Positions 47,921-64,000 of a stretch of DNA of 64,000 nt are shown here, one piece after another. Numbering within the stretch: position 1 is the first letter of the stretch; each line of letters starts with the position of its first letter. The stretch is from Candidatus Poribacteria bacterium (GTDB taxonomy: Bacteria; Poribacteria; WGA-4E; WGA-3G): the NCBI GenBank assembly GCA_012270795.1, contig JAAXHO010000131.1, forward strand, positions 14,690 to 78,689. Direction: 5' to 3'. The notes beneath the pieces are model-generated. The model had not been told where the DNA came from and did not search any database. It saw nothing but the letters and a program-made list of their open reading frames with translations. The position numbers were made by a program, and so were the translations under genes.

Positions 47921-48151
47921 ATGAATAATTCGTCAACTATTCAAAAGATCGTAGAGCAATTAGAGATGCTTTCACCGATTCTTCAGAAACAGGTTTTGGA
48001 TTTCACGTTAAAACTTGCAGATGAAATGTCAGAAGGTGCTCCAATTCACGAATTCCTTAATTTCTCAGGGACTATTCCACCAGAAGACCTTGAACAGATG
48101 AAGCAGGCAATCGAAAAAGGATGCGAACAAGTCTATGCTTCAGAATGGTAA
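47921..48151 (+). CDS. Putative antitoxin (VapB/DUF2281-like)
   Basis: GAGG RBS, QKQVLDF and G.I..EDLEQM..AIE.GCE. Overlaps the PIN gene. Confidence 0.75.
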   Translation: MNNSSTIQKIVEQLEMLSPILQKQVLDFTLKLADEMSEGAPIHEFLNFSGTIPPEDLEQMKQAIEKGCEQVYASEW

Positions 48152-48530
48152 GTATTTATTAGATACAAATATCGTTATTGCAATGTTTGCTAACGATATT
48201 AACATTGAAGAAGAAAGACAGAAAATGGGTAAAGTTTACTTGCCTACTCCTGTGATTGGTGAACTATATTATGGTGCTCGTTATTCTGATAGACCTATAG
48301 AAAACATCACGAGAATAAACAACCTTTCAGTGCGGATACCCTGCATTTCTTGTAATAAAGAAACTGCTCGTTGGTATGGAATTATCAAGAATCAATTGAG
48401 GCTAAAAGGGAATCTCATCCCCGATAATGACATCTGGATTGCTGCAATCGCTAGGCAGCGTGATTTGATTCTTGTTACGCGAGATGCACATTTCAATCAA
48501 GTGGAGTCTCTCAACTTGGCAAGATGGTAG
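48135..48530 (+). CDS. vapC: VapC family PIN-domain toxin
   Basis: YLLDTN, GELYYGA, IPDNDIWIAA.A and LVTRDAHF. Confidence 0.92.
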   Translation: MLQNGKYLLDTNIVIAMFANDINIEEERQKMGKVYLPTPVIGELYYGARYSDRPIENITRINNLSVRIPCISCNKETARWYGIIKNQLRLKGNLIPDNDIWIAAIARQRDLILVTRDAHFNQVESLNLARW

Positions 48531-48604
48531 ATCAACAATCAGTTTCCACTCAATACACACAATGTATCTGCTCAACTTCACCACTTTTAAATTAGGAAAC
48601 AACA

Positions 48605-49945
48605 ATGTCAGAAACAAGACCTGAACCTGCAACAGCGGGGATAGAATCAAAACAGACCACAGTTGGAAGCGTATTTGTCTCAAATTATCCGCCTTATTCT
48701 ATATGGAATGATTCGGCAGTTCCAGATGTACATCATGCCCTGGGTGAAAAACCGCGTCCTGATGCTACATTGGGATTATACCTTCACATCCCATTTTGCA
48801 GAAAAAGATGCAAATTCTGCTATTTTCGAGTATATACCGATAAAAACAGCACAGAAATTGATACTTATTTGAATGCTTTGGCGAAAGAGGTAGAACTCTA
48901 TAGCAGACAACCAGCAATTGCGAATAGACCCTTACGGTTTGTCTATTTCGGGGGTGGCACACCATCTTATATCAGTGTCAAACACCTGACTGCATTGGTA
49001 GATAGGGTAAAAAATGTAATGCCATGGGATGCTGCGGAAGAGGTCGCTTTTGAATGTGAACCCGGCACACTTACTCAGAAAAAATTGGAAGCGATTAAGA
49101 CAATCGGAGTCACCCGTTTGAGTCTCGGTGTAGAGAATTTGAATGACGAAATTCTTGCAGAAAACGGCAGAGCGCATCTTTCAAAAGAGGTATATCGTAT
49201 CCATCCTTGGATACAGGAATTAGCATTTGATCAGGTAAACATTGACCTTATCTCAGGTATGATTGGAGAAACATGGGAAAGTTGGCGCGAAACTGTGAAA
49301 AAGACCATTGACCTTGATCCCGATAGTATCACCGTTTATCAGCTTGAGTTGCCGTTTAACACCGTCTATTCCAAAGACATTCTCGGTGGTGATTCGTTGC
49401 CTGTTGCAGATTGGAAACTGAAACGTGAATGGCATCAATATGCCTTTGAGCAATTTGAAAAAGCTGGATATGTAATTTCCAGCGCGTACACTGTGCTAAA
49501 GAAAGATAAACCGAGTCAGTTTGTCTATCGTGATGCCGTGTGGCAGGGAAGCGATATGATAGGCACAGGGGTTGCGTCATTTTCACATCTGAGTGGGATA
49601 CATTTTCAAAATGCCCCTTCATGGGGGGATTATCTTGGAAATCTTGAGGAAGATAAGTTGCCTGTCTACCGTGCACTGAAACCAACAGAAACCGAAAAAC
49701 TGACACGAGAGATGATTTTGCAGCTCAAACTCGGTAAAATTAGACCGTCCTATTTCAAGGAAAAATTCGGTGCGGATATCCTCACGCAATATGCGGAGGC
49801 TTATGAAAAACTGCAAAATGATCGTATGTTACACATCAATGCAGAAACTGATGAGATCGTATTAACGCAACGTGGGTTGCTTCGGGTTGATAGTCTGCTT
49901 CCAGCGTTTTATGCACCAGAATATCAGAATACACGATATACATAA
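48605..49945 (+). CDS. HemN-like (class C) radical SAM protein
   Basis: LYLHIPFCRKRCKFC, YFGGGTPS, RLSLGV and NIDLI.G. Confidence 0.9.
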   Translation: MSETRPEPATAGIESKQTTVGSVFVSNYPPYSIWNDSAVPDVHHALGEKPRPDATLGLYLHIPFCRKRCKFCYFRVYTDKNSTEIDTYLNALAKEVELYSRQPAIANRPLRFVYFGGGTPSYISVKHLTALVDRVKNVMPWDAAEEVAFECEPGTLTQKKLEAIKTIGVTRLSLGVENLNDEILAENGRAHLSKEVYRIHPWIQELAFDQVNIDLISGMIGETWESWRETVKKTIDLDPDSITVYQLELPFNTVYSKDILGGDSLPVADWKLKREWHQYAFEQFEKAGYVISSAYTVLKKDKPSQFVYRDAVWQGSDMIGTGVASFSHLSGIHFQNAPSWGDYLGNLEEDKLPVYRALKPTETEKLTREMILQLKLGKIRPSYFKEKFGADILTQYAEAYEKLQNDRMLHINAETDEIVLTQRGLLRVDSLLPAFYAPEYQNTRYT

Positions 49946-49948
49946 TAG

Positions 49949-51199
49949 ATGGATAGAAAAAAACAATTTTTCCGCCTGCGTGAAATGCTTGCACAAGTAT
50001 TAGAAACAAACGCCTTCTACAAGCAGAAATTCACCAACGTTGGAATTAGTCATCCCAACGATATCCAAACAATAGCCGATTATCAGAAACTTCCATTCAC
50101 AACCAAAGACGAACTGAGCAACGATCAGGTTTCCAACCCACCTTACGGTACTAATCTTACCTTTCCCTTGGAAGAATATACCTGCTTACATCAGACCTCA
50201 GGGACGACCGGTTCACCGTTGCGATGGTTAGATACGAAGGCATCATGGGACTGGTGGGGAAAATGTTGGCGTGATATATATAGTGCTGCAGGAGTGACAT
50301 CAGCAGATCGCTTTATGATCGCCTTTTCTTTCGGTCCGTTTATCGGTTTCTGGAGTGCGTATCACGGTGCACAGCAACTTGGTGCATTGACAATTGCAAA
50401 TGGTGGCTTAAGTTCGGAACAGAGGATCCGTGCTATTCTCAGTAACGATGTGACGGTGGTAATCTGTACGCCAACTTACGCGCTACGTCTTGTGGAAGTG
50501 GCGGAACAGGAAGGGGTTGACTTAAACAGGGATTCTTGTGTTCGGGTGACTATCCATGCAGGGGAACCCGGAGCAAGTTTGTCAGCAACTAAACAGCGGA
50601 TTGAGGATGGTTGGGGGGCGCGTGCCTATGACCATGCGGGGGCTACCGAAGTCGGTGCTTGGGGTGTGATGTGTAGACCCCAAGCTGGCGTTCACCTTAA
50701 CGAAGATGAGTTTATTTGCGAAGTGCTTGATACAGAAACGGACAAACCCTCAGACGAAGGGGAGTTAGTTATCACAAATTTGGGACGTATTGGTATGCCA
50801 GTGATTCGTTACCGTACAGGTGATTATGTCAGGTTGAAATCAGGGAAATGTGAGTGTGGAAGTCCGCACCGAGTACTTGAAGGGGGTGTTCTTGGACGCA
50901 TTGATGATGCTATTATCGTGCGCGGATTAAATGTCTATCCTGCTACAATTGAGAATATCATAATGAAGTTTCCCGATGTGAATGAATTCGCTGTTCGTGC
51001 CTACCGAACAGAAACACTTGATGAACTTGAGGTACAAATAGAATCTACCAACAAAAATCCTGCTGATACTACAGTTGCTGTTAGTAACGCTATACGTAAT
51101 GCATTAGGTTTGCGGACAATTGTGAAATTTGTCCCACGTGGATCATTGCCGAGATATGAACTGAAATCAAAACGATTCACGGATGAACGTAATTTGTAG
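49949..51199 (+). CDS. Phenylacetate-CoA ligase (PaaK) family adenylating enzyme
   Basis: LPFTTK, QTSGTTG, AGEPG, GATEVG, RYRTGD and GR.DD...VRG.NVYP. Confidence 0.9.
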   Translation: MDRKKQFFRLREMLAQVLETNAFYKQKFTNVGISHPNDIQTIADYQKLPFTTKDELSNDQVSNPPYGTNLTFPLEEYTCLHQTSGTTGSPLRWLDTKASWDWWGKCWRDIYSAAGVTSADRFMIAFSFGPFIGFWSAYHGAQQLGALTIANGGLSSEQRIRAILSNDVTVVICTPTYALRLVEVAEQEGVDLNRDSCVRVTIHAGEPGASLSATKQRIEDGWGARAYDHAGATEVGAWGVMCRPQAGVHLNEDEFICEVLDTETDKPSDEGELVITNLGRIGMPVIRYRTGDYVRLKSGKCECGSPHRVLEGGVLGRIDDAIIVRGLNVYPATIENIIMKFPDVNEFAVRAYRTETLDELEVQIESTNKNPADTTVAVSNAIRNALGLRTIVKFVPRGSLPRYELKSKRFTDERNL

Positions 51200-51213
51200 T
51201 GGTAAATCTTCCC

Positions 51214-51243
51214 TTGACAATCTAATTCTTGAATGGGTATAAT
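51214..51243 (+). promoter_or_regulatory. Consensus sigma70 promoter
   Basis: TTGACA-N18-TATAAT immediately after the stop of the PaaK-like gene. Confidence 0.75.
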
Positions 51244-51263
51244 TGTTTGACAGGGAGAACAAA

Positions 51264-51464
51264 ATGGTAGACTACGAACTTGACGAAATTCACAGAATTC
51301 GACGAGAAATATCTGCACGATTTGATCATGATGTAGACAAACTGATCGCTCACTATCACGCTTTAGAAAAAGAATACCGGAAGTCTGGCAAATACAAATT
51401 TGTGGACCCACCGGATGAGAAACCTGAATCCACCGAATCAGGAGACGAAAAAGCAGCAGATTGA
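51264..51464 (+). CDS. Small helical hypothetical protein (66 aa)
   Basis: GGGAGA RBS, then MVDYELDEIHRIRREISARFDHDVDKLIAHY. Confidence 0.7.
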   Translation: MVDYELDEIHRIRREISARFDHDVDKLIAHYHALEKEYRKSGKYKFVDPPDEKPESTESGDEKAAD

Positions 51465-51495
51465 TCGCGAATTTTCTGCCCCAAATAAAGTTACG

Positions 51496-54400
51496 ATGTC
51501 AAGACTATTAGATGGATTAAACCCTTCACAACGAGAAGCTGTTACACATACAATAGGTCCCCTTTTAATTATTGCAGGCCCCGGATCAGGTAAAACGCGA
51601 ACAGTTGTTCATTCTATTGCTTATGCTATAGAAAATAAAGAAAGGTTACCGAGTAGAATCGTTGCATTCACTTTCACGCGCAAAGCCCGTGAGGAGTTGA
51701 GGTACCGTGTGCAAGAAGTCATGGAACGAGACGAAAACGCTACTGACGTTTGGATTTCTACATTCCACAGTTTTTGTGGGAAGGTTCTGCACCAAGATGT
51801 TCAGCAGTTGGACATAAGTAACAGACAAGAGTTTACCATTAATGAGTTAACACGTCTCTATAATGAGGGGACGCGTGCCCAAATTGAATATCTACAGCAT
51901 CATCGATTTGCTGAACCCGAGGAAGTCCTGCGTTTTATAAACGAGTGCACAGCAGAGGATGTTTCTCCTGCTGAGGTAAGGAGTTACGCGCAGCATCGCC
52001 ACATCTCACAAACCTATGTAGAAATCTACCAGAGATACAGACAACTTGTTGAAAATGGCGAGGCTAATTATACTGAATGCCAACTATTGACGAATGCTCT
52101 TCTCAGGGATGTTCCTGAAGTTAGAGAAAGATGGCAAGAGAAATTTGATCTTATCTTCGTTGATGAATACCAGGACACGGATCTTATTCAATACCAAATT
52201 ATCAAAACTCTTGCAGAGAGGCATCAGAACCTAAGGGTTGTTGGGGATGATGACCAAAGTATTTACGGATGGCGGGGAGCTGATATCCAAAATATATTAA
52301 ACTTTGAGAAAGACTATCAGCATGCTAAAGTAATTTCGCTTGGACAAAACTATCGTTCGACAAAGAAGGTAGTTGCGGTATCCCGTGCGTTAGCGGACTT
52401 TAATCCAGATAGACGAGATAAAGAACTGTTTACGTGGAACTTTGAAGGTGAGAAAGTAAAACACCTCCATTGTGAAAACCATGAAGAAGCTTCTACTATC
52501 GCCGCTTTTATCCATCGTGCTATTGATGAAGGCGGTCGATCACCAAGCGATTTTGCTGTGCTATACCGCAACAATAAACAAGCAGATGCTTTTAAAAACG
52601 CTTTCAATGGTTTAGGAATTCAGTATCATATAGCTCCAGACTCTTCAGATACGAACACCCCTGGTGTATCTATGATGACGATCCATAAATCTAAAGGTCT
52701 GGAATTTCCTAACGTGTTTGTGGTAGGTATATGTCAAGGGTTATTACCAAATTATCACAACCAAGATGAAAAGAACTGGGATGAGGAACTCCGAGTCCTT
52801 TACGTGGCGATGACTCGAGCAAAAAACTGGTTATGTTTGTCTTCTTATGAAAGAGAGGGATACAAACAGCGCGGACAATCCCCATTCTTGAAACGCCAGT
52901 ACATCCCAACTAACCTTCTTGAATCCATATCGACGCTACAGGATACCAAGATACCACCAGCACCTGAGGAGATGAACGCTCCTGAGGAATCATCCAACTA
53001 TATTGAGCCGCTTCCTGAGCAACTACTTGGAAATGGTATGACTGTCCTGGGAATAGATCCAGGTATCCAAAATGTAGGATGGTCAATCACTAAAAAATCT
53101 CCTGATGGTTATACTGTCCTTGACTATGGGACCCAGACTACTACTGGATGGCAAGATACCTTAGTACAAACAAAAAGCACAATCAATAAACTGATAGACT
53201 TACATTGTCCCGATGCAATTGCGGTCGAGAAGATTGAAATTGGAAGTGAAGCAACAAGAGAAGATTGGTTTCTTTACGTAGCAGGATGTGTAGCAACCAT
53301 AAAAAGCATTGCCCATCAACGCGAAATTGAGTGTCCCCTTTATACACCACAGCATGTTAAAGAGGCAGCCACGGACAATAGAAATGCATGTAAGGTAGAT
53401 GTTCAGAAGGCTGTCAAGCGAATGTGTAAACTCTCGCAAATTCCAGAACCTCATCATTCCGCTGATGCTATTGCAGCAAGTCTTTGTTACCTCAGAAGTT
53501 ATCTAAACTCTTCCCGCTTTGAAGGTAATAAACGAAAAGAGGAAAATTACAACTCAGGTATCGAGCATTTGGACAATCAGAAATATAGCGATGCAATCGC
53601 CAAGTTCAATGAGGCGATAAATATAGACCCCATTGATGCAGAGATGCACTACGGAGTAGGGCGTGCGTGCCTTGGACAGGGTGACTTGAAAACAGGGGAA
53701 AATGCAGCCAAAAAAGCAATAAGGCTTACAGAGAATAATCATCCCGATTCACAGAAACTTTTGGATGCTATAAGGCATTATCGCTCTGGTTGTAATTTCT
53801 TGAAAAATCGTGAATGGGATAGGGCGATTGACAAATTCCAAGAAGCTATAAATATAGAACCTATTTTTACTGATGCACACTATGGACTGGGACGCGTGCA
53901 CCTTGCACAAGGCAATTTGGATGAAGCAGAAAATGCTGCTAAAAAAGCTTTAGGGTTAACAAAAAATAACCATCCTGATTCACAGAAACTTTTGGATGCT
54001 ATAGAGCATTACCGCTCTGGTTGTAATTCCTTGAACAATCATGAATGGGATATCGCGATTGACAAATTCCAAGAAGCTATAAACCGAGAACCTATCTTTA
54101 CTGATGCATACTGTGGGCTTAGCGAGGTATACCTTGAGACAGGTAATCTGGAAGCTGCCAGAAATGCAGCCGAAGAAGCCTTAAGACTCATAAATGACTA
54201 TCAACCTGCCCAAGAACTTAAAGAAAAAATAAAAGAAAAATACAAAGAGCAAGGTGATGAGCATCAGAATAGAAAAGCGTACGCCGAGGCAGTAAAATCT
54301 TATAAACTGGCAATAAGAATTGATAAAAAATATAAAGATGCGCATAACAATCTTGGTATGGTTTATCGGAAAATGGAAAAATACAACAGGGCAATAAAAG

Positions 54401-55239
54401 CCCATCTGCAAGCAATAAACATTGATGAAAGCTGTCATATAGGCCATACCTATCTCGGCATCGTATACTACAGGATGGGCGAGTATGCTGAGGCCGTAAG
54501 TCCACTAAAACGTGCAATTGCAATTAAGTCTGATTATCAAATAGCATACTACAATCTTGCTCGTACTTACTTCAAAATGGAAAATCTAACAGAGGCAAGT
54601 GAAACAGTGCTTGAGGCAAAAAGGCTTGATGCTAATGATCAGGATACACTTAAAATTGTAATGGGTATCCAAGACGCATATTTGAAAAAAGGATATGATA
54701 ATTTTAGACAGGGTGATCTAACTGCATCAGAAAAAGAAGCAAAATATGCATTACGACTTGACCCAAACTATAAGCATGCAACCTGTCTTATGAACTCTAT
54801 AAAAGAAGAGTATTATAAACGTGGTTCAACATCTCTTAAACAGAACGAATGGATACCAGCAGAAACATGTGCAAAAGAAGCATTGAGAATTGACCGAAAC
54901 TATCAACTTGCATCTGAACTTTTAAAACAAGCGTATTATGAACAGGGACTTGCACACATAAAAAACAGCAGATATGACAAAGGTATAAACAAACTTCAAA
55001 AAGCAAACGATATTGATGCAAATTGTGAAAAAACGCACTATTATCTTGGATTGGCTTACTTCCAATTGGACAGATTGAAAGAAGCAAAACTATCGATCAA
55101 AAATGCATTATCAATTCAACAAAATTATCCTCAGGCCAGTGAACTTCTGTCTAAAATAAACCATCCCCGTAATTGGTTAAAATTAGGAAGGACTAAGGTG
55201 CAACAATTGGCTCGTTGGATAGACGAATTTCTTTCTTAA
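51496..55239 (+). CDS. UvrD/Rep helicase - RuvC nuclease - TPR fusion protein
   Basis: All SF1A motifs: LNPSQ, AGPGSGKT, TFHSF, DEYQD, GDDDQSIYGWRGA, NYRS, TIHKSKGLEF, YVAMTRA. RuvC motifs LGIDPG, IAVE, YTPQ.VK, HHSADAIA. Long TPR tail. ATG 51496 is preferred over the track's 51400. Confidence 0.9.
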   Translation: MSRLLDGLNPSQREAVTHTIGPLLIIAGPGSGKTRTVVHSIAYAIENKERLPSRIVAFTFTRKAREELRYRVQEVMERDENATDVWISTFHSFCGKVLHQDVQQLDISNRQEFTINELTRLYNEGTRAQIEYLQHHRFAEPEEVLRFINECTAEDVSPAEVRSYAQHRHISQTYVEIYQRYRQLVENGEANYTECQLLTNALLRDVPEVRERWQEKFDLIFVDEYQDTDLIQYQIIKTLAERHQNLRVVGDDDQSIYGWRGADIQNILNFEKDYQHAKVISLGQNYRSTKKVVAVSRALADFNPDRRDKELFTWNFEGEKVKHLHCENHEEASTIAAFIHRAIDEGGRSPSDFAVLYRNNKQADAFKNAFNGLGIQYHIAPDSSDTNTPGVSMMTIHKSKGLEFPNVFVVGICQGLLPNYHNQDEKNWDEELRVLYVAMTRAKNWLCLSSYEREGYKQRGQSPFLKRQYIPTNLLESISTLQDTKIPPAPEEMNAPEESSNYIEPLPEQLLGNGMTVLGIDPGIQNVGWSITKKSPDGYTVLDYGTQTTTGWQDTLVQTKSTINKLIDLHCPDAIAVEKIEIGSEATREDWFLYVAGCVATIKSIAHQREIECPLYTPQHVKEAATDNRNACKVDVQKAVKRMCKLSQIPEPHHSADAIAASLCYLRSYLNSSRFEGNKRKEENYNSGIEHLDNQKYSDAIAKFNEAINIDPIDAEMHYGVGRACLGQGDLKTGENAAKKAIRLTENNHPDSQKLLDAIRHYRSGCNFLKNREWDRAIDKFQEAINIEPIFTDAHYGLGRVHLAQGNLDEAENAAKKALGLTKNNHPDSQKLLDAIEHYRSGCNSLNNHEWDIAIDKFQEAINREPIFTDAYCGLSEVYLETGNLEAARNAAEEALRLINDYQPAQELKEKIKEKYKEQGDEHQNRKAYAEAVKSYKLAIRIDKKYKDAHNNLGMVYRKMEKYNRAIKAHLQAINIDESCHIGHTYLGIVYYRMGEYAEAVSPLKRAIAIKSDYQIAYYNLARTYFKMENLTEASETVLEAKRLDANDQDTLKIVMGIQDAYLKKGYDNFRQGDLTASEKEAKYALRLDPNYKHATCLMNSIKEEYYKRGSTSLKQNEWIPAETCAKEALRIDRNYQLASELLKQAYYEQGLAHIKNSRYDKGINKLQKANDIDANCEKTHYYLGLAYFQLDRLKEAKLSIKNALSIQQNYPQASELLSKINHPRNWLKLGRTKVQQLARWIDEFLS

Positions 55240-55290
55240 CGGAGATAGAAAAAGGGATAGCTAAGGTGCAACAATTGGCTCGTTGGATAG
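55193..55290. repeat. 30-bp perfect direct repeat separated by 38 bp
   Basis: CTAAGGTGCAACAATTGGCTCGTTGGATAG at 55193 and 55261. Confidence 0.9.
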
Positions 55291-55369
55291 TAAACCGTAT
55301 CGGGTTCTAAAAAACGTAATAAGATACTGACCCTGTAATCAAAATCACAATTCGTACAGAGAAACATAG

Positions 55370-56668
55370 ATGAACACACACAAAAACTACGACACCATCA
55401 TTATCGGAGGGGGGCCTGCCGGTAGCACTGCCGCGACGCTTATTGCACAACAGGGTTACCGTGTCCTACTCTTAGAACGCGAAACTGAACCCACGTTTAA
55501 AATCGGTGAGTCGCTCATTCCTGCCACCTACTGGACTTTCAAACGACTCGGCATGCTCAAGAAGTTAAGAGAGAGTCATTTCCCGCAGAAGTTCAGTGTG
55601 CAGTTCTTTACACGCACAGGGAAAGCAACGAATCCGTTCTATTTCTTTGAGACCAATCCCCATGAAAGTGCAATAACGTGGCAGGTATTACGTAGCGAGT
55701 TTGACCAGATGCTGTTGGACAACGCAACAGAAAAAGGGGTAGAGGTGCGATGGGGTGTGAGTGTACGGAAAGTCCTTTTTGAGGGTGACAAGGCGTTAGG
55801 TGTCGTTGCACAGAATGGGAAAAATGGTAACCTTGAAACGATACATGGTCATGTGATAGTCGATTCGACGGGGCAACGTTCACTGATTGGCAGGCAGTTA
55901 GACCTCAACACTTTTGAACCCAATTTGAAAAAGGCATCGCTATTTACACACTACGAAGATGGGTATCGTGACGAAGGTTTAGATGAAGGTGCAACGCTCA
56001 TCTTACATACAGAGGATAAAGATTCATGGTTTTGGTCAATTCCGCTTCCATATAACCGCACCAGCATTGGTGTTGTCGGTGAATTGGATTATCTACTTCA
56101 AAATCGGAGAGAACAAAACGGCAAACTGAATGCACAAAAGATTTTTGATGAGGAATTGGAGAAATGCCAACCTTTGAAGCAACGACTTGAAGGGGCAAAA
56201 CAGCTCTTTCCTATACAGACAACAAAGGACTTTTCATATCGTGCCAGTAGAATCGCAGGTGAGAATTGGGTGTTGATTGGAGATGCGTTTGGGTTCTTGG
56301 ATCCGGTATATTCAACAGGACTATTCTTAGCACTCAAATCCGGTGAAATGGCTGCCGATGTAATTGTTGATGCGTTTCGGTCAAATGACTTTTCAGGAAC
56401 AAAGTTAGGAAGTTGGGGACAGGTATTTGTTGATGGCATGGAAGCATTTCGGAAATTGGTCTACGCTTTTTACACAAAAGAATTCAGTTTTGCAAGGTTT
56501 CTGACAGAGTACCCAGAGCATTTAGGCGGTATCGTAGACATATTAAGCGGTGATGTCTATAGACGTGATGTAACGCACATCTTTCCTGATATGTCAAAGA
56601 TGTGTTATTTTCCACCTGAAGTTCCACTTGAACAAACTACAAATGAAAACAGCATAGCAAAGATGTAA
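55370..56668 (+). CDS. FAD-dependent oxidoreductase, flavin-dependent halogenase-like
   Basis: GGGPAG, KIGES, R..FD..L, WFWSIP (WxWxIP) and GDA.GF.DP.YSTG. Confidence 0.85.
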   Translation: MNTHKNYDTIIIGGGPAGSTAATLIAQQGYRVLLLERETEPTFKIGESLIPATYWTFKRLGMLKKLRESHFPQKFSVQFFTRTGKATNPFYFFETNPHESAITWQVLRSEFDQMLLDNATEKGVEVRWGVSVRKVLFEGDKALGVVAQNGKNGNLETIHGHVIVDSTGQRSLIGRQLDLNTFEPNLKKASLFTHYEDGYRDEGLDEGATLILHTEDKDSWFWSIPLPYNRTSIGVVGELDYLLQNRREQNGKLNAQKIFDEELEKCQPLKQRLEGAKQLFPIQTTKDFSYRASRIAGENWVLIGDAFGFLDPVYSTGLFLALKSGEMAADVIVDAFRSNDFSGTKLGSWGQVFVDGMEAFRKLVYAFYTKEFSFARFLTEYPEHLGGIVDILSGDVYRRDVTHIFPDMSKMCYFPPEVPLEQTTNENSIAKM

Positions 56669-56738
56669 CAACGGTTCAATTTCGTAATCAAAATGTCAGT
56701 ATATTTTGTTTGATTCATTAAAATAAAGGAGAACAAAA

Positions 56739-57785
56739 ATGAGAAATGTCATATTTAATACACCTATTATCATTCTTATTGTGGTCTTAAGTCTTGGTAT
56801 CGGTTGCGATAATGCCTCAAAAAAGGATGCCGACAATGGCGACAACGGTGAAGCATCCACAACAACAGAGGACAAAAACACATCAGAGCGGCAATTTCTT
56901 AGTGTTGGGACCGCCCCACTGCAAGGTGCTTTTCATCAAGTTGGTAGTGCGATTGCTGACGTTGTTAACCGAAATATAAAAGAAAAAGATTGGGTGGTCA
57001 CTGCGGAAGGTACTAAAGGCACACAACAGAACATACGACTACTTGTAGAAGAAGATAGTACACTGGAATTTGGGATGGCTAACGCTGCAATATCATACTT
57101 TGCTGTTCGTGGTGAAGGCGCGTGGAAAACTGAACAACCGATTCGTGCTGTAGTAACCCTTGCCCCCAATGTTGCATTATTTGTAACCCAAAAATCCTCT
57201 GGTATCCAATCCATGCAGGAGCTCAAAGGCAAACGGGTGGTTGTGGGACCTGCAGGTGCGGGTTTTGAGTATTTCTTGAAACCAGTATTTGAGGAACACG
57301 GTCTGACTTATGATGATTTTACCGACCTCAACGGTTCTTATGGTGATGCGGTTGATATGTTGGCAAATGGATCAGCCGATGCCGCGTTTATGGGAGGTGC
57401 ACACCCTATTTCAGCAGTTAGACAAGCGATTTCGTCTCAAGACATAGTTTTTATTCCATTTGAAGAAGCCGCGTTGAAATCCCTCTTTGAGAAATACCCA
57501 TTTTTTAACGCAGTGACAATTTCTGCCAATACTTATGATAAGATACAAAAGGAAGCATTTTCTTCCGTGAATGTTGGTTCAATGCACCTTATCACTGCGG
57601 AGAATGCTGATGAAGATATGGTGTACCACTTTACAAAAACATTATATACGCATCGTGCGGAAGTAGTTGATGCACATCCTGCTGGTAAGGCGATCAATGA
57701 AAAGAACGCTGTCAAAGATGTAGGAACACCATTTCACCCGGGGGCAGTCCGTTTTTATAAGGAAATTGGTATTTGGATTGAGTGA
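56739..57785 (+). CDS. TAXI family TRAP transporter solute-binding lipoprotein
   Basis: Lipobox GIGC, GT....G.F...G, T.G...N, LKGKRV.VG and PFHPGA.RFYKE.G. Confidence 0.9.
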   Translation: MRNVIFNTPIIILIVVLSLGIGCDNASKKDADNGDNGEASTTTEDKNTSERQFLSVGTAPLQGAFHQVGSAIADVVNRNIKEKDWVVTAEGTKGTQQNIRLLVEEDSTLEFGMANAAISYFAVRGEGAWKTEQPIRAVVTLAPNVALFVTQKSSGIQSMQELKGKRVVVGPAGAGFEYFLKPVFEEHGLTYDDFTDLNGSYGDAVDMLANGSADAAFMGGAHPISAVRQAISSQDIVFIPFEEAALKSLFEKYPFFNAVTISANTYDKIQKEAFSSVNVGSMHLITAENADEDMVYHFTKTLYTHRAEVVDAHPAGKAINEKNAVKDVGTPFHPGAVRFYKEIGIWIE

Positions 57786-57801
57786 AAAATGTCAAAATCA
57801 T

Positions 57802-57831
57802 TTGACAACACAATTAATCTTATGGTATTAT
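57802..57831 (+). promoter_or_regulatory. Putative tRNA promoter
   Basis: TTGACA-N18-TATTAT with an extended TG. Confidence 0.65.
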
Positions 57832-57842
57832 AAATACCTAAA

Positions 57843-57915
57843 GCCGAGATAGCTCAGTCGGTAGAGCAGTAGACTGAAAATCTACGTGTCGGCAGTTCGA
57901 TTCTGCCTCTCGGCA
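57843..57915 (+). tRNA. tRNA-Phe (GAA)
   Basis: Acceptor stem GCCGAGA/TCTCGGC, anticodon arm GTAGA-CTGAAAA-TCTAC and T-loop GTTCGA. CCA is not encoded. Confidence 0.95.
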
Positions 57916-61189: not shown

Positions 61190-62809
61190 TTAACGTGGTT
61201 CAAGTACGACACAAGGCAGAATCATTTCTTCAAATGAGATACCACCGTGTTGAAAACTGTTATGAAATAACGCTTTATATGCGTTAAATTGTCTTTCATA
61301 TACGAAGTAATAATCTTCTTTTGCTATGATGTAGTTCTTTTCATCTGCATTGTAGGGTAGCCGGTATTCTTCAGGGTTTTCAATAAGCAATCCTGCGTTT
61401 GGATCACATGTAATGTCTTTGCCATCTTTCGTCCGCAATCCAGATGAAAGTTCATATTGGCTTGAGATTTTTGCAGCGTTTTGACATAAGACTGAACCGT
61501 GATCAGAAGTGATAATTACAGTCATACCCTTTTCGGCAGCAATGTTGATGATTTCGCTGAGTCGTGAGTTTCTAAACCAAGTTTGGACAAGTTTACGAAA
61601 TGCTTCTTCACTTGGGATAAGTTGTTGAAGCAGGGATACATCACCACGGAGATGGGTTAGCATGTCCAGGAAATCAACAACAAGTGAAGCAAAACTAATA
61701 TAGTTAGTATCAGTTAACCATTGCAAGTATTGCGTTTCTCCACGTTCATCAAAAATTTTGAAATAGTGTGGAGCTGGTTTGAGGGCTATACCGTGTCTTT
61801 CGAGCTGTAAATGCATGAGTTCTTTTTCATAGCGATTGATGCTTGTATGTCCATCTTCAGGTTCTGCATATAATTCTGGATACCGTTCAGCCAAATCTCT
61901 TGGAAAGAGTCCGCTGAAAATGGCATTTCGCGCATAACGTGTTGTAGTCGGCAAAATTGAGTAGTAGTAGTGTTTTGTCATGTGGAAGTCACGATAAAGT
62001 ACTTTTTCAAGTTGCAACCAGTGATCCATCCGCATGCAATCAACTACGATAAATAAGACAGACTTTCCTATTTGAATTTCAGGTAAAACATATTTATAAA
62101 AAACATCTACTGACAGTGATGGCGAATTATCTCCATCAAGCCATTTTGCGTAGTTGTCGTGTATATAATCTGCAAATATGGAATTTGCCTCTAGTTTTTC
62201 TCTGGTATGGATCTCTCTAAGTTCGTCGACGTTGCTAAGTCCGTTTAATTTTATATCCCATTCCAAAAAATGGAGATACATCTCTACCCAGGTCTGCCAA
62301 TCATATTCAGCGTCCTGTTCAACTGTAAACCGGTTTTGATTGTATTCTAAAGTGTCTTGTTTGTTAAAGTTCTTCACATAGGCTTGAGGTGTATATGCTT
62401 CTTGCATTTTCTGTTTTTCAAGCAGGAAAGTAAGGGATGTAACTAACTGTCTTGGATTTGTAGGCATTATCAGGACATCATTAACGCCATGAAAACTTGC
62501 TTTCTCCATTATTTCTTGTCCACCAGTGGTTGACAGTAAAATGATGGGTAAGTGTGGGTCTTCCTTACGGATACGTGAAAGTATGTCATCAGAACGTGTT
62601 GGCATTTCATAATTTAATAGGATGGCGTGAAACTTTAACGCCTGACATAAAGTTATGCCATCATCTATGGTATCTGCAAGTGTAACATCAAATCCATGGT
62701 ATTCTAAAAACTGAATATAGGGTTTCAACTCTGATTTCACATTAGGATTTTCAAGTGACTTAACGGTTGAAGTGTTAATCCAGAGAATATTCCATCTTGT
62801 TTTTCTCAT
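61190..62809 (-). CDS. PorX-like protein: degenerate receiver domain plus PglZ/alkaline-phosphatase domain
   Basis: VVDCMR.D.W, SILPTTTRYARNAIFSG, DML.H, TSDHG and FQHGGISFEEM. ATG 62809 follows GGAGGG. Confidence 0.85.
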   Translation of the reverse strand: MRKTRWNILWINTSTVKSLENPNVKSELKPYIQFLEYHGFDVTLADTIDDGITLCQALKFHAILLNYEMPTRSDDILSRIRKEDPHLPIILLSTTGGQEIMEKASFHGVNDVLIMPTNPRQLVTSLTFLLEKQKMQEAYTPQAYVKNFNKQDTLEYNQNRFTVEQDAEYDWQTWVEMYLHFLEWDIKLNGLSNVDELREIHTREKLEANSIFADYIHDNYAKWLDGDNSPSLSVDVFYKYVLPEIQIGKSVLFIVVDCMRMDHWLQLEKVLYRDFHMTKHYYYSILPTTTRYARNAIFSGLFPRDLAERYPELYAEPEDGHTSINRYEKELMHLQLERHGIALKPAPHYFKIFDERGETQYLQWLTDTNYISFASLVVDFLDMLTHLRGDVSLLQQLIPSEEAFRKLVQTWFRNSRLSEIINIAAEKGMTVIITSDHGSVLCQNAAKISSQYELSSGLRTKDGKDITCDPNAGLLIENPEEYRLPYNADEKNYIIAKEDYYFVYERQFNAYKALFHNSFQHGGISFEEMILPCVVLEPR

Positions 62810-62852
62810 GTTTATACCCTCCCCATAAAGCAACATGGTATCAATCTTTAGT

Positions 62853-64000
62853 TTAGATATTAGAAACAAAACGTCCAGGATTAAGTATATTGTTGGTATC
62901 AAATTGAGATTTGATCTGTTTCATGATGCTAAGTGTGTTCCCGATTGGCCCCCAAACATCTATTAGTTTTTTGAGACCTATCGGAGCAGACTCAATAATC
63001 AAGTTGCCACCCATTTTTATAGTACTTTCCCTTAGATGCGTTAGCATGTTTGAGATATGATTAAAATCACAGTTAGATTCTAAATGTACTTTTAGGTATA
63101 AAACGCCATTACCCAAAAGGGCTATCATCTCATGGTTATCTCTAATAGCAAATTCAACAAATTTGATAATTTCTGTTCGCTTGAAGTTTATCTTTACAAT
63201 GACAGTATTATCACTTTGTTCAACAGTTGGAAACTCTTGCAGTATTTTTTTTAGATTCTGATATGATTCTGATTCAAATTTTTGCACACCTAAATTATCG
63301 GTTTGTTGCAAGAGTGTTTGAACAAAATTGACTTGCCATCTGACAGTTTCAGGATCACCAGCAAATCCAAGGACGAGTGTTGGTTTCTTTTCAGTCAACC
63401 CATTTAATTCGCAATTAAACAGCATGTTGACAAACATAGGCAGTGATTGTGAACTGACAACATTTAATCCTGTTCTTATAGCATCTTGTATACTGTGAAA
63501 CGGTGCTATAATGATCTCTTGATGCAACGGAAGTGGAGCTAATTTGAGCGCAACATCGGTGATAATTCCAAGCGTGCCAAAGGCACCAATATATAGTTTG
63601 TTGAGATCATAACCTGCAACATTTTTTACAACTTTACCGCCACTTTTGACCATTTTTCCGTCAGCATGTACTACATGCATACCTAACACAAGGTTTCTTG
63701 CAGTTCCGTATCTTAGACGTTGTGGGCCGCTTGTATTCGTAGCAACGATGCCTCCAATCGTACATCTGTCTGCAAAAGGAGGATCAAAAGGTAAAAACTG
63801 TCTGTGTTTTGATAACGTAGCTTGTAAGTCTTTTAAAAGCATTCCTGCTTCAACAGTAACAGTCAAATCCGCTGGTTCATATTCTATCACTTTGTTCAGG
63901 CGTTTTGTTGAAAGGACAATATCTGGGCTCTGCGCTAAGTTTCCAATTCCAAGTTTTGTGCCTGAACCTGCTGGTAATACTGTATAACTGTTTTTTGACG
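62853..64000 (-). CDS. glcE: FAD-binding oxidoreductase, glycolate oxidase GlcE-like (5' end off the right edge)
   Basis: PAGSGTKLGIG (read upstream of the track start), YEPADLT, TIGG, GGKVVKNVAGYDL and FD...ILNPGRF. Confidence 0.85.
   Translation of the reverse strand, partial: SKNSYTVLPAGSGTKLGIGNLAQSPDIVLSTKRLNKVIEYEPADLTVTVEAGMLLKDLQATLSKHRQFLPFDPPFADRCTIGGIVATNTSGPQRLRYGTARNLVLGMHVVHADGKMVKSGGKVVKNVAGYDLNKLYIGAFGTLGIITDVALKLAPLPLHQEIIIAPFHSIQDAIRTGLNVVSSQSLPMFVNMLFNCELNGLTEKKPTLVLGFAGDPETVRWQVNFVQTLLQQTDNLGVQKFESESYQNLKKILQEFPTVEQSDNTVIVKINFKRTEIIKFVEFAIRDNHEMIALLGNGVLYLKVHLESNCDFNHISNMLTHLRESTIKMGGNLIIESAPIGLKKLIDVWGPIGNTLSIMKQIKSQFDTNNILNPGRFVSNI

Follow-up and report, generated by a model that had tools for sequence, protein, structure and literature searches.

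Within a 64,000-nt stretch of Candidatus Poribacteria DNA (contig JAAXHO010000131.1, positions 14,690 to 78,689; hereafter the window, with its genome labeled G000 in our comparisons), a single open reading frame (ORF) joins a UvrD-type helicase, a RuvC-type resolvase, and a long array of tetratricopeptide repeats (TPRs). A sequence-only reading of the window had proposed this three-part architecture, and Pfam places the parts at the same coordinates. The fusion gene (51496..55239, + strand) encodes 1247 aa from its ATG, and entry P0001 of the protein collection is 100% identical over 1247 aa. An alternative TTG start at 51400 gives a product of 1279 aa (51400-55239); the N-termini of homologs align from the ATG at 51496. 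Pfam coordinates below follow the 1279-aa numbering, and residue positions (D521 and the like) follow the 1247-aa numbering. The gene lies between a PaaK-like ligase gene and an FAD oxidoreductase gene, where a promoter, a 66-aa ORF (small66), and the fusion follow one another, with 31 nt from the small66 stop to the fusion ATG. Our preferred interpretation, which we hold to be evenly balanced between right and wrong, is that the fusion is an accessory single-polypeptide helicase-nuclease of the conflict (anti-phage or anti-mobile-element) type with a TPR/FGE sensor, confined to Poribacteria and hitherto undescribed.

The N-terminal part (aa 1-485; 51496..52950, +) is a superfamily 1A (SF1A) UvrD/PcrA-like helicase core, matched by the Pfam families UvrD-helicase (PF00580, at 40-307, E 9.9e-75) and UvrD_C (PF13361, E 2e-39), with PcrA 1pjr as the best solved relative (E 1.2e-94). 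The protein begins directly with the helicase Q motif and has no secretion signal. All motifs of the 1A/2A motor (Walker A, DExQD, III-VI) are present and are conserved across 95 homologs, namely those of 120 listed proteins that are at least 1000 aa long and carry a Walker A motif in their first 90 residues. Within this set the Walker A sequence GPGSGKT is invariant (95/95), as are the D, E, Q, and D of DEYQD (95/95). The earlier description of a full-motif SF1A helicase was therefore right as to the motifs, which are shared with UvrD, PcrA, and Rep, but the fusion lacks two parts of those enzymes, the 2B subdomain (~177 residues) and the tail at the C-terminus. Query residues 379-390 span PcrA 380-558, with ~10 residues replacing PcrA 381-557; because the alignment skips from PcrA 380 to 558 over so short a stretch, the whole 2B subdomain is missing. 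For comparison, an engineered 2B deletion in mycobacterial UvrD1 is reported to cause a gain of helicase activity and to be harmful when overexpressed (PMC13646824). The helicase part falls below all NCBIfam equivalog cut-offs (e.g., pcrA, 397.7 versus 911.2), and PADLOC returned only generic UvrD-helicase matches to the fusion (GajB, RTasHel).

A variable linker (aa 486-513; 52951..53034, +), with 31-75% identity among copies, leads into the RuvC-type resolvase domain (aa 514-672; 53035..53511, +). The match to PF02075 (549-696, nt 53044-53487) covers model positions 1-147 of 148 (E 4.1e-21) at 75.9 bits against a gathering cut-off of 22.2, i.e., a full-length RuvC match, and the domain aligns end to end with the solved chains 6lw3, 6s16, 4ld0, 4ep4, and 1hjr. 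These coordinates agree with the segment (about 53038-53490) for which catalytic GIDPG, AVE, and HHSAD motifs had been noted from the sequence, and all three motifs are there. The tetrad D521, E578, H654, and D657 is invariant in 95/95 full-length homologs; its third position is His, as in Thermus RuvC. The counterparts in E. coli RuvC are D7, E66, D138, and D141 (PMC3834835). The invariance of the catalytic residues suggests that both enzyme sites are kept under selection.

The fusion thus shares a full-length PF02075 domain and the catalytic tetrad with the cellular RuvC proteins of E. coli, T. thermophilus, and P. aeruginosa. Those proteins, however, are stand-alone enzymes of ~160-190 aa that work with RuvAB, as homodimers that introduce paired nicks into four-way junctions, whereas the RuvC of the fusion stands between helicase and TPRs in a 1247-aa protein, away from ruvAB. 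It misses the NCBIfam equivalog cut-offs for cellular RuvC (NF000711, 86.7 versus 163; TIGR00228, 47.9 versus 100.65) and is 30-36% identical to canonical RuvCs, that of its own genome included. A quick tree was built with 11 canonical RuvCs, 30 representatives from the listing, and fusion copies (10 of 19 used). It puts the fusion clade on a long separate stem (1.47) outside the Poribacteria RuvC clade; this placement does not support an origin of the fusion RuvC as a recent duplicate of the resident ruvC.

The strict conservation of both catalytic centers (95/95) and the full-length match to genuine junction resolvases also argue for our main rival explanation, an accessory repair or recombination enzyme whose motor and resolvase, combined in one protein, would handle stalled or reversed forks and recombination intermediates alongside RuvABC, with the TPRs docking it on the replisome or on repair partners. 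Such an enzyme would be akin to the archaeal Hef-type helicase-nuclease fusions. We judge it rather unlikely in view of the C-terminal region and of the distribution and evolution described below, to which it must be fitted.

The C-terminal TPR array (aa ~690-1247; 53563..55236, +) is the most variable part of the protein. The earlier reading saw about 550 aa of repeats here, and about 558 aa were found, with many TPR Pfam families covering about 790-1270. Identity among copies is 35-68%, and the window copy contains a tandem duplication of a 231-nt (77-aa) unit (53698..54116, +; Tandem Repeats Finder: period 231, 1.8 copies, 86% matches, score 663). The region C-terminal of the RuvC H-x-A-D motif ranges from 56 to 1004 aa in 99 homologs, and 23 of 120 listed relatives have an FGE-sulfatase-like domain at the C-terminus. 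Defense-associated STAND proteins are reported to use TPR-like repeats as well as FGE-sulfatase-like domains as sensors (PMC13581612), and FGS domains are described as ligand binders in conflict systems (PMC7159879). Variable length, FGE variants, and internal duplication make the C-terminus of the fusion sensor-like. The hypervariable array and its FGE-sulfatase variants speak against a repair function.

A search with residues 470-720 (the junction and RuvC) recovered 191 proteins at E<=1e-3. The 120 that were listed combine RuvC with TPRs, nearly all of them also have UvrD, and all named ones are Candidatus Poribacteria. Among 176 genomes of the phylum (like most genomes compared here, largely metagenome bins), 23 have a fusion-type frame. 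The window's genus accounts for 8 of these (among 40 genomes), a second genus for 14 (among 65), and a third for 1 (among 20); the other 51 genomes have none. Fusion-bearing assemblies of one or two contigs include G102, G049, G164, and G152, and 21 of the 23 genomes hold an unbroken frame of roughly 800-1670 aa. Of the 153 genomes without a fusion-type match, 147 match only at the level of the canonical ~170-aa RuvC (30-36% identity) and 6 give no match. An index-free scan of 1.84 billion representatives yielded 21 proteins at E<=1e-30, each at least 50% identical and all of the fusion family; beyond these, the same scan gave just ordinary RuvCs or helicase tails. In contigs of named species genomes, 15 loci match the query over almost its full length, 14 from Candidatus Poribacteria and one from an "uncultured bacterium", and metagenome contigs added one further copy. 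No relative outside Poribacteria was seen in the representative scan or the genome contigs. Literature searches likewise found no characterized protein of this architecture, in line with what the sequence-only reading had stated; supplements, where domain-architecture tables may be found, lay outside that search.

The window genome also has a stand-alone ruvC (170 bits), adjoining ruvA and ruvB on another contig (C134), and a uvrD/pcrA of normal length (755-aa frame). Separate genes of both kinds, for which the earlier reading had suggested a check, are therefore present, and the fusion is accessory. A complete ruvCAB set plus uvrD in the same genome, and a presence in just 23 of 176 genomes, weigh against the repair explanation. 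Two further explanations were rejected: an assembly chimera, given the same architecture in 23 genomes, some of them closed chromosomes, and in 191 database proteins, and the sole or universal RuvC of the lineage, given the separate ruvC and the many genomes without a fusion.

The fusion is dispensable and has been lost repeatedly. Only N-terminal remnants persist in G108 and G105 (aa 1-151 and 1-88), the copy in G096 is broken into two frames, and in G097 (locus L025; G097:C2:1355500-1375499) two identical 426-aa transposase genes have divided the fusion into three pieces. At L025 a third, related 425-aa transposase gene stands in place of the PaaK-like gene. These independent deletions, the insertion-sequence disruption, and the split frame count against a repair role. 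Copies of the fusion are 46-63% identical to each other, versus 75-90% for its neighbors. The ratio of nonsynonymous to synonymous substitution rates (dN/dS) is 0.16-0.42 for the fusion versus 0.02-0.08 for the neighbor, i.e., 4-8 times the neighbor's, as a rough estimate by the simple Nei-Gojobori method with dS saturated for some pairs. This difference, too, is a point against the repair explanation.

Repeated loss and raised dN/dS are also what could be cited for a decaying, lineage-specific paralog without present function. A related proposal is a "eukaryote-like" TPR protein for dealings with an animal host, and TPR proteins are indeed common in the window genome, which has several weak TPR paralogs. 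We regard both versions as very improbable. Decay is at odds with the unbroken frame in 21 of 23 genomes and with catalytic residues that are all invariant. As to the host, the absence of a secretion signal and the Q motif at the very start of the protein tell against dealings with it, and a role at the host surface is unlikely because the enzymes act on DNA.

Phylogenies of the parts were computed from an alignment (A1) of 19 of 24 copies, with L025 and L037 excluded as broken and L054-L056 as partial. The tree of the neighboring FAD gene splits the genera g1 and g6 cleanly (support 100/100), whereas the helicase and RuvC trees mix genera (3 changes each, 0% of bootstraps monophyletic). They also conflict with each other for the window copy: its helicase groups with L024 and L027 (100/99) and its RuvC with L020, L021, L022, and L023 (99/98). 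Synonymous divergence between the window and L021 is 0.31 in RuvC versus 2.9 in the flanking gene, and that between L024 and L027 is 0.23 in the helicase versus 0.81 in the flanking gene. Segment dS so far below that of the flanking gene, seen in several pairs, points, together with the mixed trees, to recent lateral exchange. The simplest reading of these comparisons is that species swap whole alleles, or parts of them, by recombination at a conserved site. Alleles common to different genera and conflicting domain trees, next to a vertically inherited neighbor, sit badly with a repair enzyme. One genome, G094, has two different fusion copies (L031 on C74 and L054 on C466) with the same FAD gene 3' of both. 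With 7% contamination and 910 contigs, this bin probably mixes two strains, and the two copies are unlikely to be true paralogs.

Recombination that moves segments laterally at a fixed site would suit a selfish or addiction element, either a helicase-resolvase that spreads by gene conversion into the conserved site or a toxin held in check by neighboring small proteins. The low segment dS relative to the flanks and the genus-mixing trees are in its favor. The fusion, however, has no terminal repeats, integrase, or transposase of its own, the transposases seen being insertions or lying beside the single relocated copy, and its frequent loss speaks against strong addiction. We consider this explanation improbable, and the small ORF described below bears on it as well.

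The site itself is shared and variable. Upstream it is bounded by the PaaK-like acyl-CoA ligase gene (49949..51199, +; PF14535 and PF00501, with PaaK models below their cut-offs), which is 75-93% identical across genomes, and downstream by a gene for an FAD-dependent halogenase/geranylgeranyl-reductase-like oxidoreductase (55370..56668, +; PF04820 and PF01494), which occurs in 39 of 40 genomes of the window's genus; both lie outside the system. The proposal that the fusion interrupts an unrelated metabolic cluster was borne out by G101 (locus L050), in which the flanking genes are 19 nt apart with nothing between them. That is the only empty gap among the 34 loci (L020-L053) compared with the window. 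Otherwise its contents are varying mixes of pairs of a VapC-like gene and small66, BrnT/BrnA (Pfam E 3.3e-22 and 3.8e-7), a 246-aa unknown protein, a pair formed by a 172-aa clan-AA-protease-like protein and a protein of 89 aa, and the fusion. Of 14 genomes of the window's genus without the fusion, two keep remnants, one has the empty gap, and the rest carry small genes. Copies of the fusion found elsewhere are L023, L025, and L032, and L055 is too short to place. The earlier notion of a self-contained cassette did not survive this comparison: 20 of 24 copies occupy one fixed chromosomal site, and none was found in phage, plasmid, or viral collections.

A site that also houses toxin-antitoxin modules is a further argument against a repair enzyme, as is the setting of one relocated copy, L023 (G164:C1:1089000-1108999), which adjoins a DDE transposase within a defense island. 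ZorA2 and ZorB2 (E 1.4e-57 and 1.9e-68) lie to one side of the fusion; beyond its other end come a 2OG-Fe(II) oxygenase similar to a CARF_2OG model, a DrmD-like SNF2 helicase (2.8e-109), and TmtA (6.3e-96). A trypsin-like protease is also part of the island.

Two other features of the window were recorded. Close to the fusion, a gene for a 131-aa PIN-domain protein (48135-48530, +; PF01850, E 4e-15) lies between PQQ-repeat and radical-SAM genes and is found only in some relatives (L024, L042), a further small insertion of toxin type. At 61190-62902 (-), a 570-aa protein combines a response-regulator receiver domain with a PglZ domain.

The small ORF had been suggested as an inhibitor or regulator of the fusion. 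It (51264..51464, +) begins at an ATG after a Shine-Dalgarno-like stretch, GGGAGAA, and is preceded by a predicted sigma-70-type promoter (51214..51243, +; TTGACA-18 nt-TATAAT) that matches both consensus hexamers at 12/12 positions, which upholds the consensus promoter noted earlier. A scan of 51100-55450 found 12 promoter-like sites, this being the one perfect site, and shuffled sequences averaged 10.6 sites of any quality. Of 16 loci examined, the window being one of them, 9 have a match of 11-12/12 ahead of a small66 copy. The small66 promoter may also serve the fusion by read-through. No terminator was found 3' of the fusion in our scan. Three RNA runs sharing the species label gave zero reads on 48500-57900, which does not bear on expression of the gene.

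No match to small66 was found in Pfam, NCBIfam, or PADLOC, the one reported by PHROGs was at chance level (E 0.018), and the Atlas yielded nothing beyond unnamed clusters below 0.9. Its homologs (n = 310), where named, are all hypothetical proteins of Poribacteria. Although it directly precedes the fusion in 16 of the 21 copies whose 5' flank lies on the locus, which would suit an addiction module at a site full of toxin-antitoxin genes, its associations point elsewhere. It starts within 5 nt after a 162-aa VapC-like gene in 12/12 loci that hold that gene or a remnant of it, stays full-length at 8 of 14 sites without the fusion, and has paralogs elsewhere in the genome (C153, C174, C210, and C115), and three intact fusion copies (L023, L028, and L032) have no small66. 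The two genes thus do not show the obligate co-occurrence of a type II toxin-antitoxin pair. Because of this adjacency, persistence, paralogy, and absence, we read small66 as one member of a toxin-antitoxin module located at the same site, most likely the partner of the VapC-like PIN toxin, orphaned here, rather than part of the fusion machinery. The earlier suggestion of an inhibitor or regulator is accordingly not supported, and the same observations count against a fusion toxin restrained by its small neighbor. The 162-aa protein itself has no match of its own in Pfam, NCBIfam, or PDB; the label "VapC-like" comes from NCBI names in several records and PF01850 in some homologs.

Two side observations concern small66. 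In an alignment (A2) of window 51264-51461 with 20 locus copies, a C-terminal E/D-K/E-A-A-D and a central K-S-G-K-Y-K-F-V-D are conserved, and the conserved free C-terminal tail may be the kind of peptide that TPR domains can bind. Elsewhere in G000 (C174:59892-63117), five tandem paralogous 201-aa ORFs are followed by a small66 paralog (63165-63389) and WD40-repeat genes.

How does the fusion compare with known systems? Its motor strongly resembles GajB models of Gabija (PADLOC, E 1e-84), which is a generic UvrD similarity, but no GajA-like OLD/TOPRIM partner stands beside it, its neighbors being small66, the PaaK-like ligase, and the FAD oxidoreductase. Gabija (GajA/GajB), Hachiman, Nhi, and AddAB/RecBCD are helicase-plus-nuclease machines of defense and repair, in which, as in the fusion, an SF1-type motor is coupled to a DNase. 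Such machines use OLD/TOPRIM, PD-(D/E)XK, or HD nucleases, whereas the fusion uses RuvC, of the RNase H fold, in one polypeptide with TPRs. Like the Avs/STAND proteins, it combines an effector nuclease and an NTPase with a TPR-like or FGE-sulfatase-like sensor at the C-terminus, the sensing being predicted. The NTPase of those proteins, however, is a STAND ATPase, while that of the fusion is an SF1A helicase, in the order NTPase-nuclease-sensor. No NB-ARC or NACHT domain was found in the fusion among the 25 listed of 31 matching Pfam families, and residues 1-485 are wholly covered by UvrD domains.

These comparisons favor the suggestion, first made from the sequence, that the fusion is a defense candidate: patchy presence, loss, raised dN/dS, mosaic alleles, TPR/FGE variation, a site that collects toxin-antitoxin genes, and an island with Zorya, DrmD-like, and TmtA genes all point to a role in conflict. 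Such an evolutionary and contextual pattern, combined with retained catalytic sites, is typical of conflict genes and unlike that of a core repair gene. In the mechanism that we propose, the TPR module, with or without FGE, would act as a ligand sensor and restrain the enzyme until it binds its target, either a foreign protein or a host protein altered by infection. Binding would bring two RuvC domains together, and since RuvC functions as a homodimer, this pairing would create an active nuclease. Lacking 2B, the motor is expected to escape the autoinhibition known from UvrD-family enzymes; it would move 3' to 5' along single-stranded DNA and supply or uncover branched DNA (forks, D-loops, or four-way junctions, for example). 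These branched structures would be nicked or resolved, and either replicating phage DNA or, in abortive infection, the cell's own DNA would be destroyed. The 66-aa ORF would be dispensable for these steps.

A number of observations weigh against a conflict role. The function is predicted from sequence comparison, and RuvC dimerization, sensing by the TPRs, and read-through from the promoter are inferred. PADLOC has no model of a UvrD-RuvC-TPR architecture. Most defense systems spread widely, unlike this single-phylum fusion: 0 of 86 matching phage records and 0 of 191 plasmid records cover at least 80% of the query, the IMG/VR viral contigs gave no fusion copy, and the junction is absent from the records of all three collections. 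Its usual surroundings, directly upstream of the FAD gene, are metabolic, and a recognizable defense island surrounds only 1 of 24 copies. The dN/dS contrast is coarse, the ratio is below 1 in every domain of the fusion, and its elevation may just as well stem from a relaxation of constraint while the gene is being lost, which would fit the repeated losses. Finally, the mixing of strains in metagenome bins can mimic mosaics. The chromosomal, fixed position of most copies, the restriction to one phylum, and dN/dS below 1 throughout are the same points that lend the repair explanation its support.

A more specific proposal goes beyond a conflict role as such. The fusion could represent a new class of innate immune receptor, in which a hypervariable TPR/FGE-sulfatase sensor controls a 2B-less SF1A helicase and a genuine Holliday-junction resolvase, and ligand-paired RuvCs cleave phage replication and recombination intermediates. 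We offer this as a tentative possibility, well short of probable. If true, it would be the first defense effector to make use of the cell's own type of junction resolvase, would stand beside the STAND (Avs/NLR) receptors as their helicase-based equivalent, and the RuvC resolvase would join the nuclease repertoire of bacterial defense. A natural UvrD motor without 2B, governed by a repeat sensor in its place, would be a new regulatory idea, and would provide a natural test case for the role of 2B and for how dimerization activates unwinding in the UvrD family. Being a single gene, the fusion can be tested in a laboratory host although Poribacteria cannot be grown. For these uncultivated, sponge-associated bacteria, the fixed site between metabolic genes would then be an exchange point for immune-type alleles.

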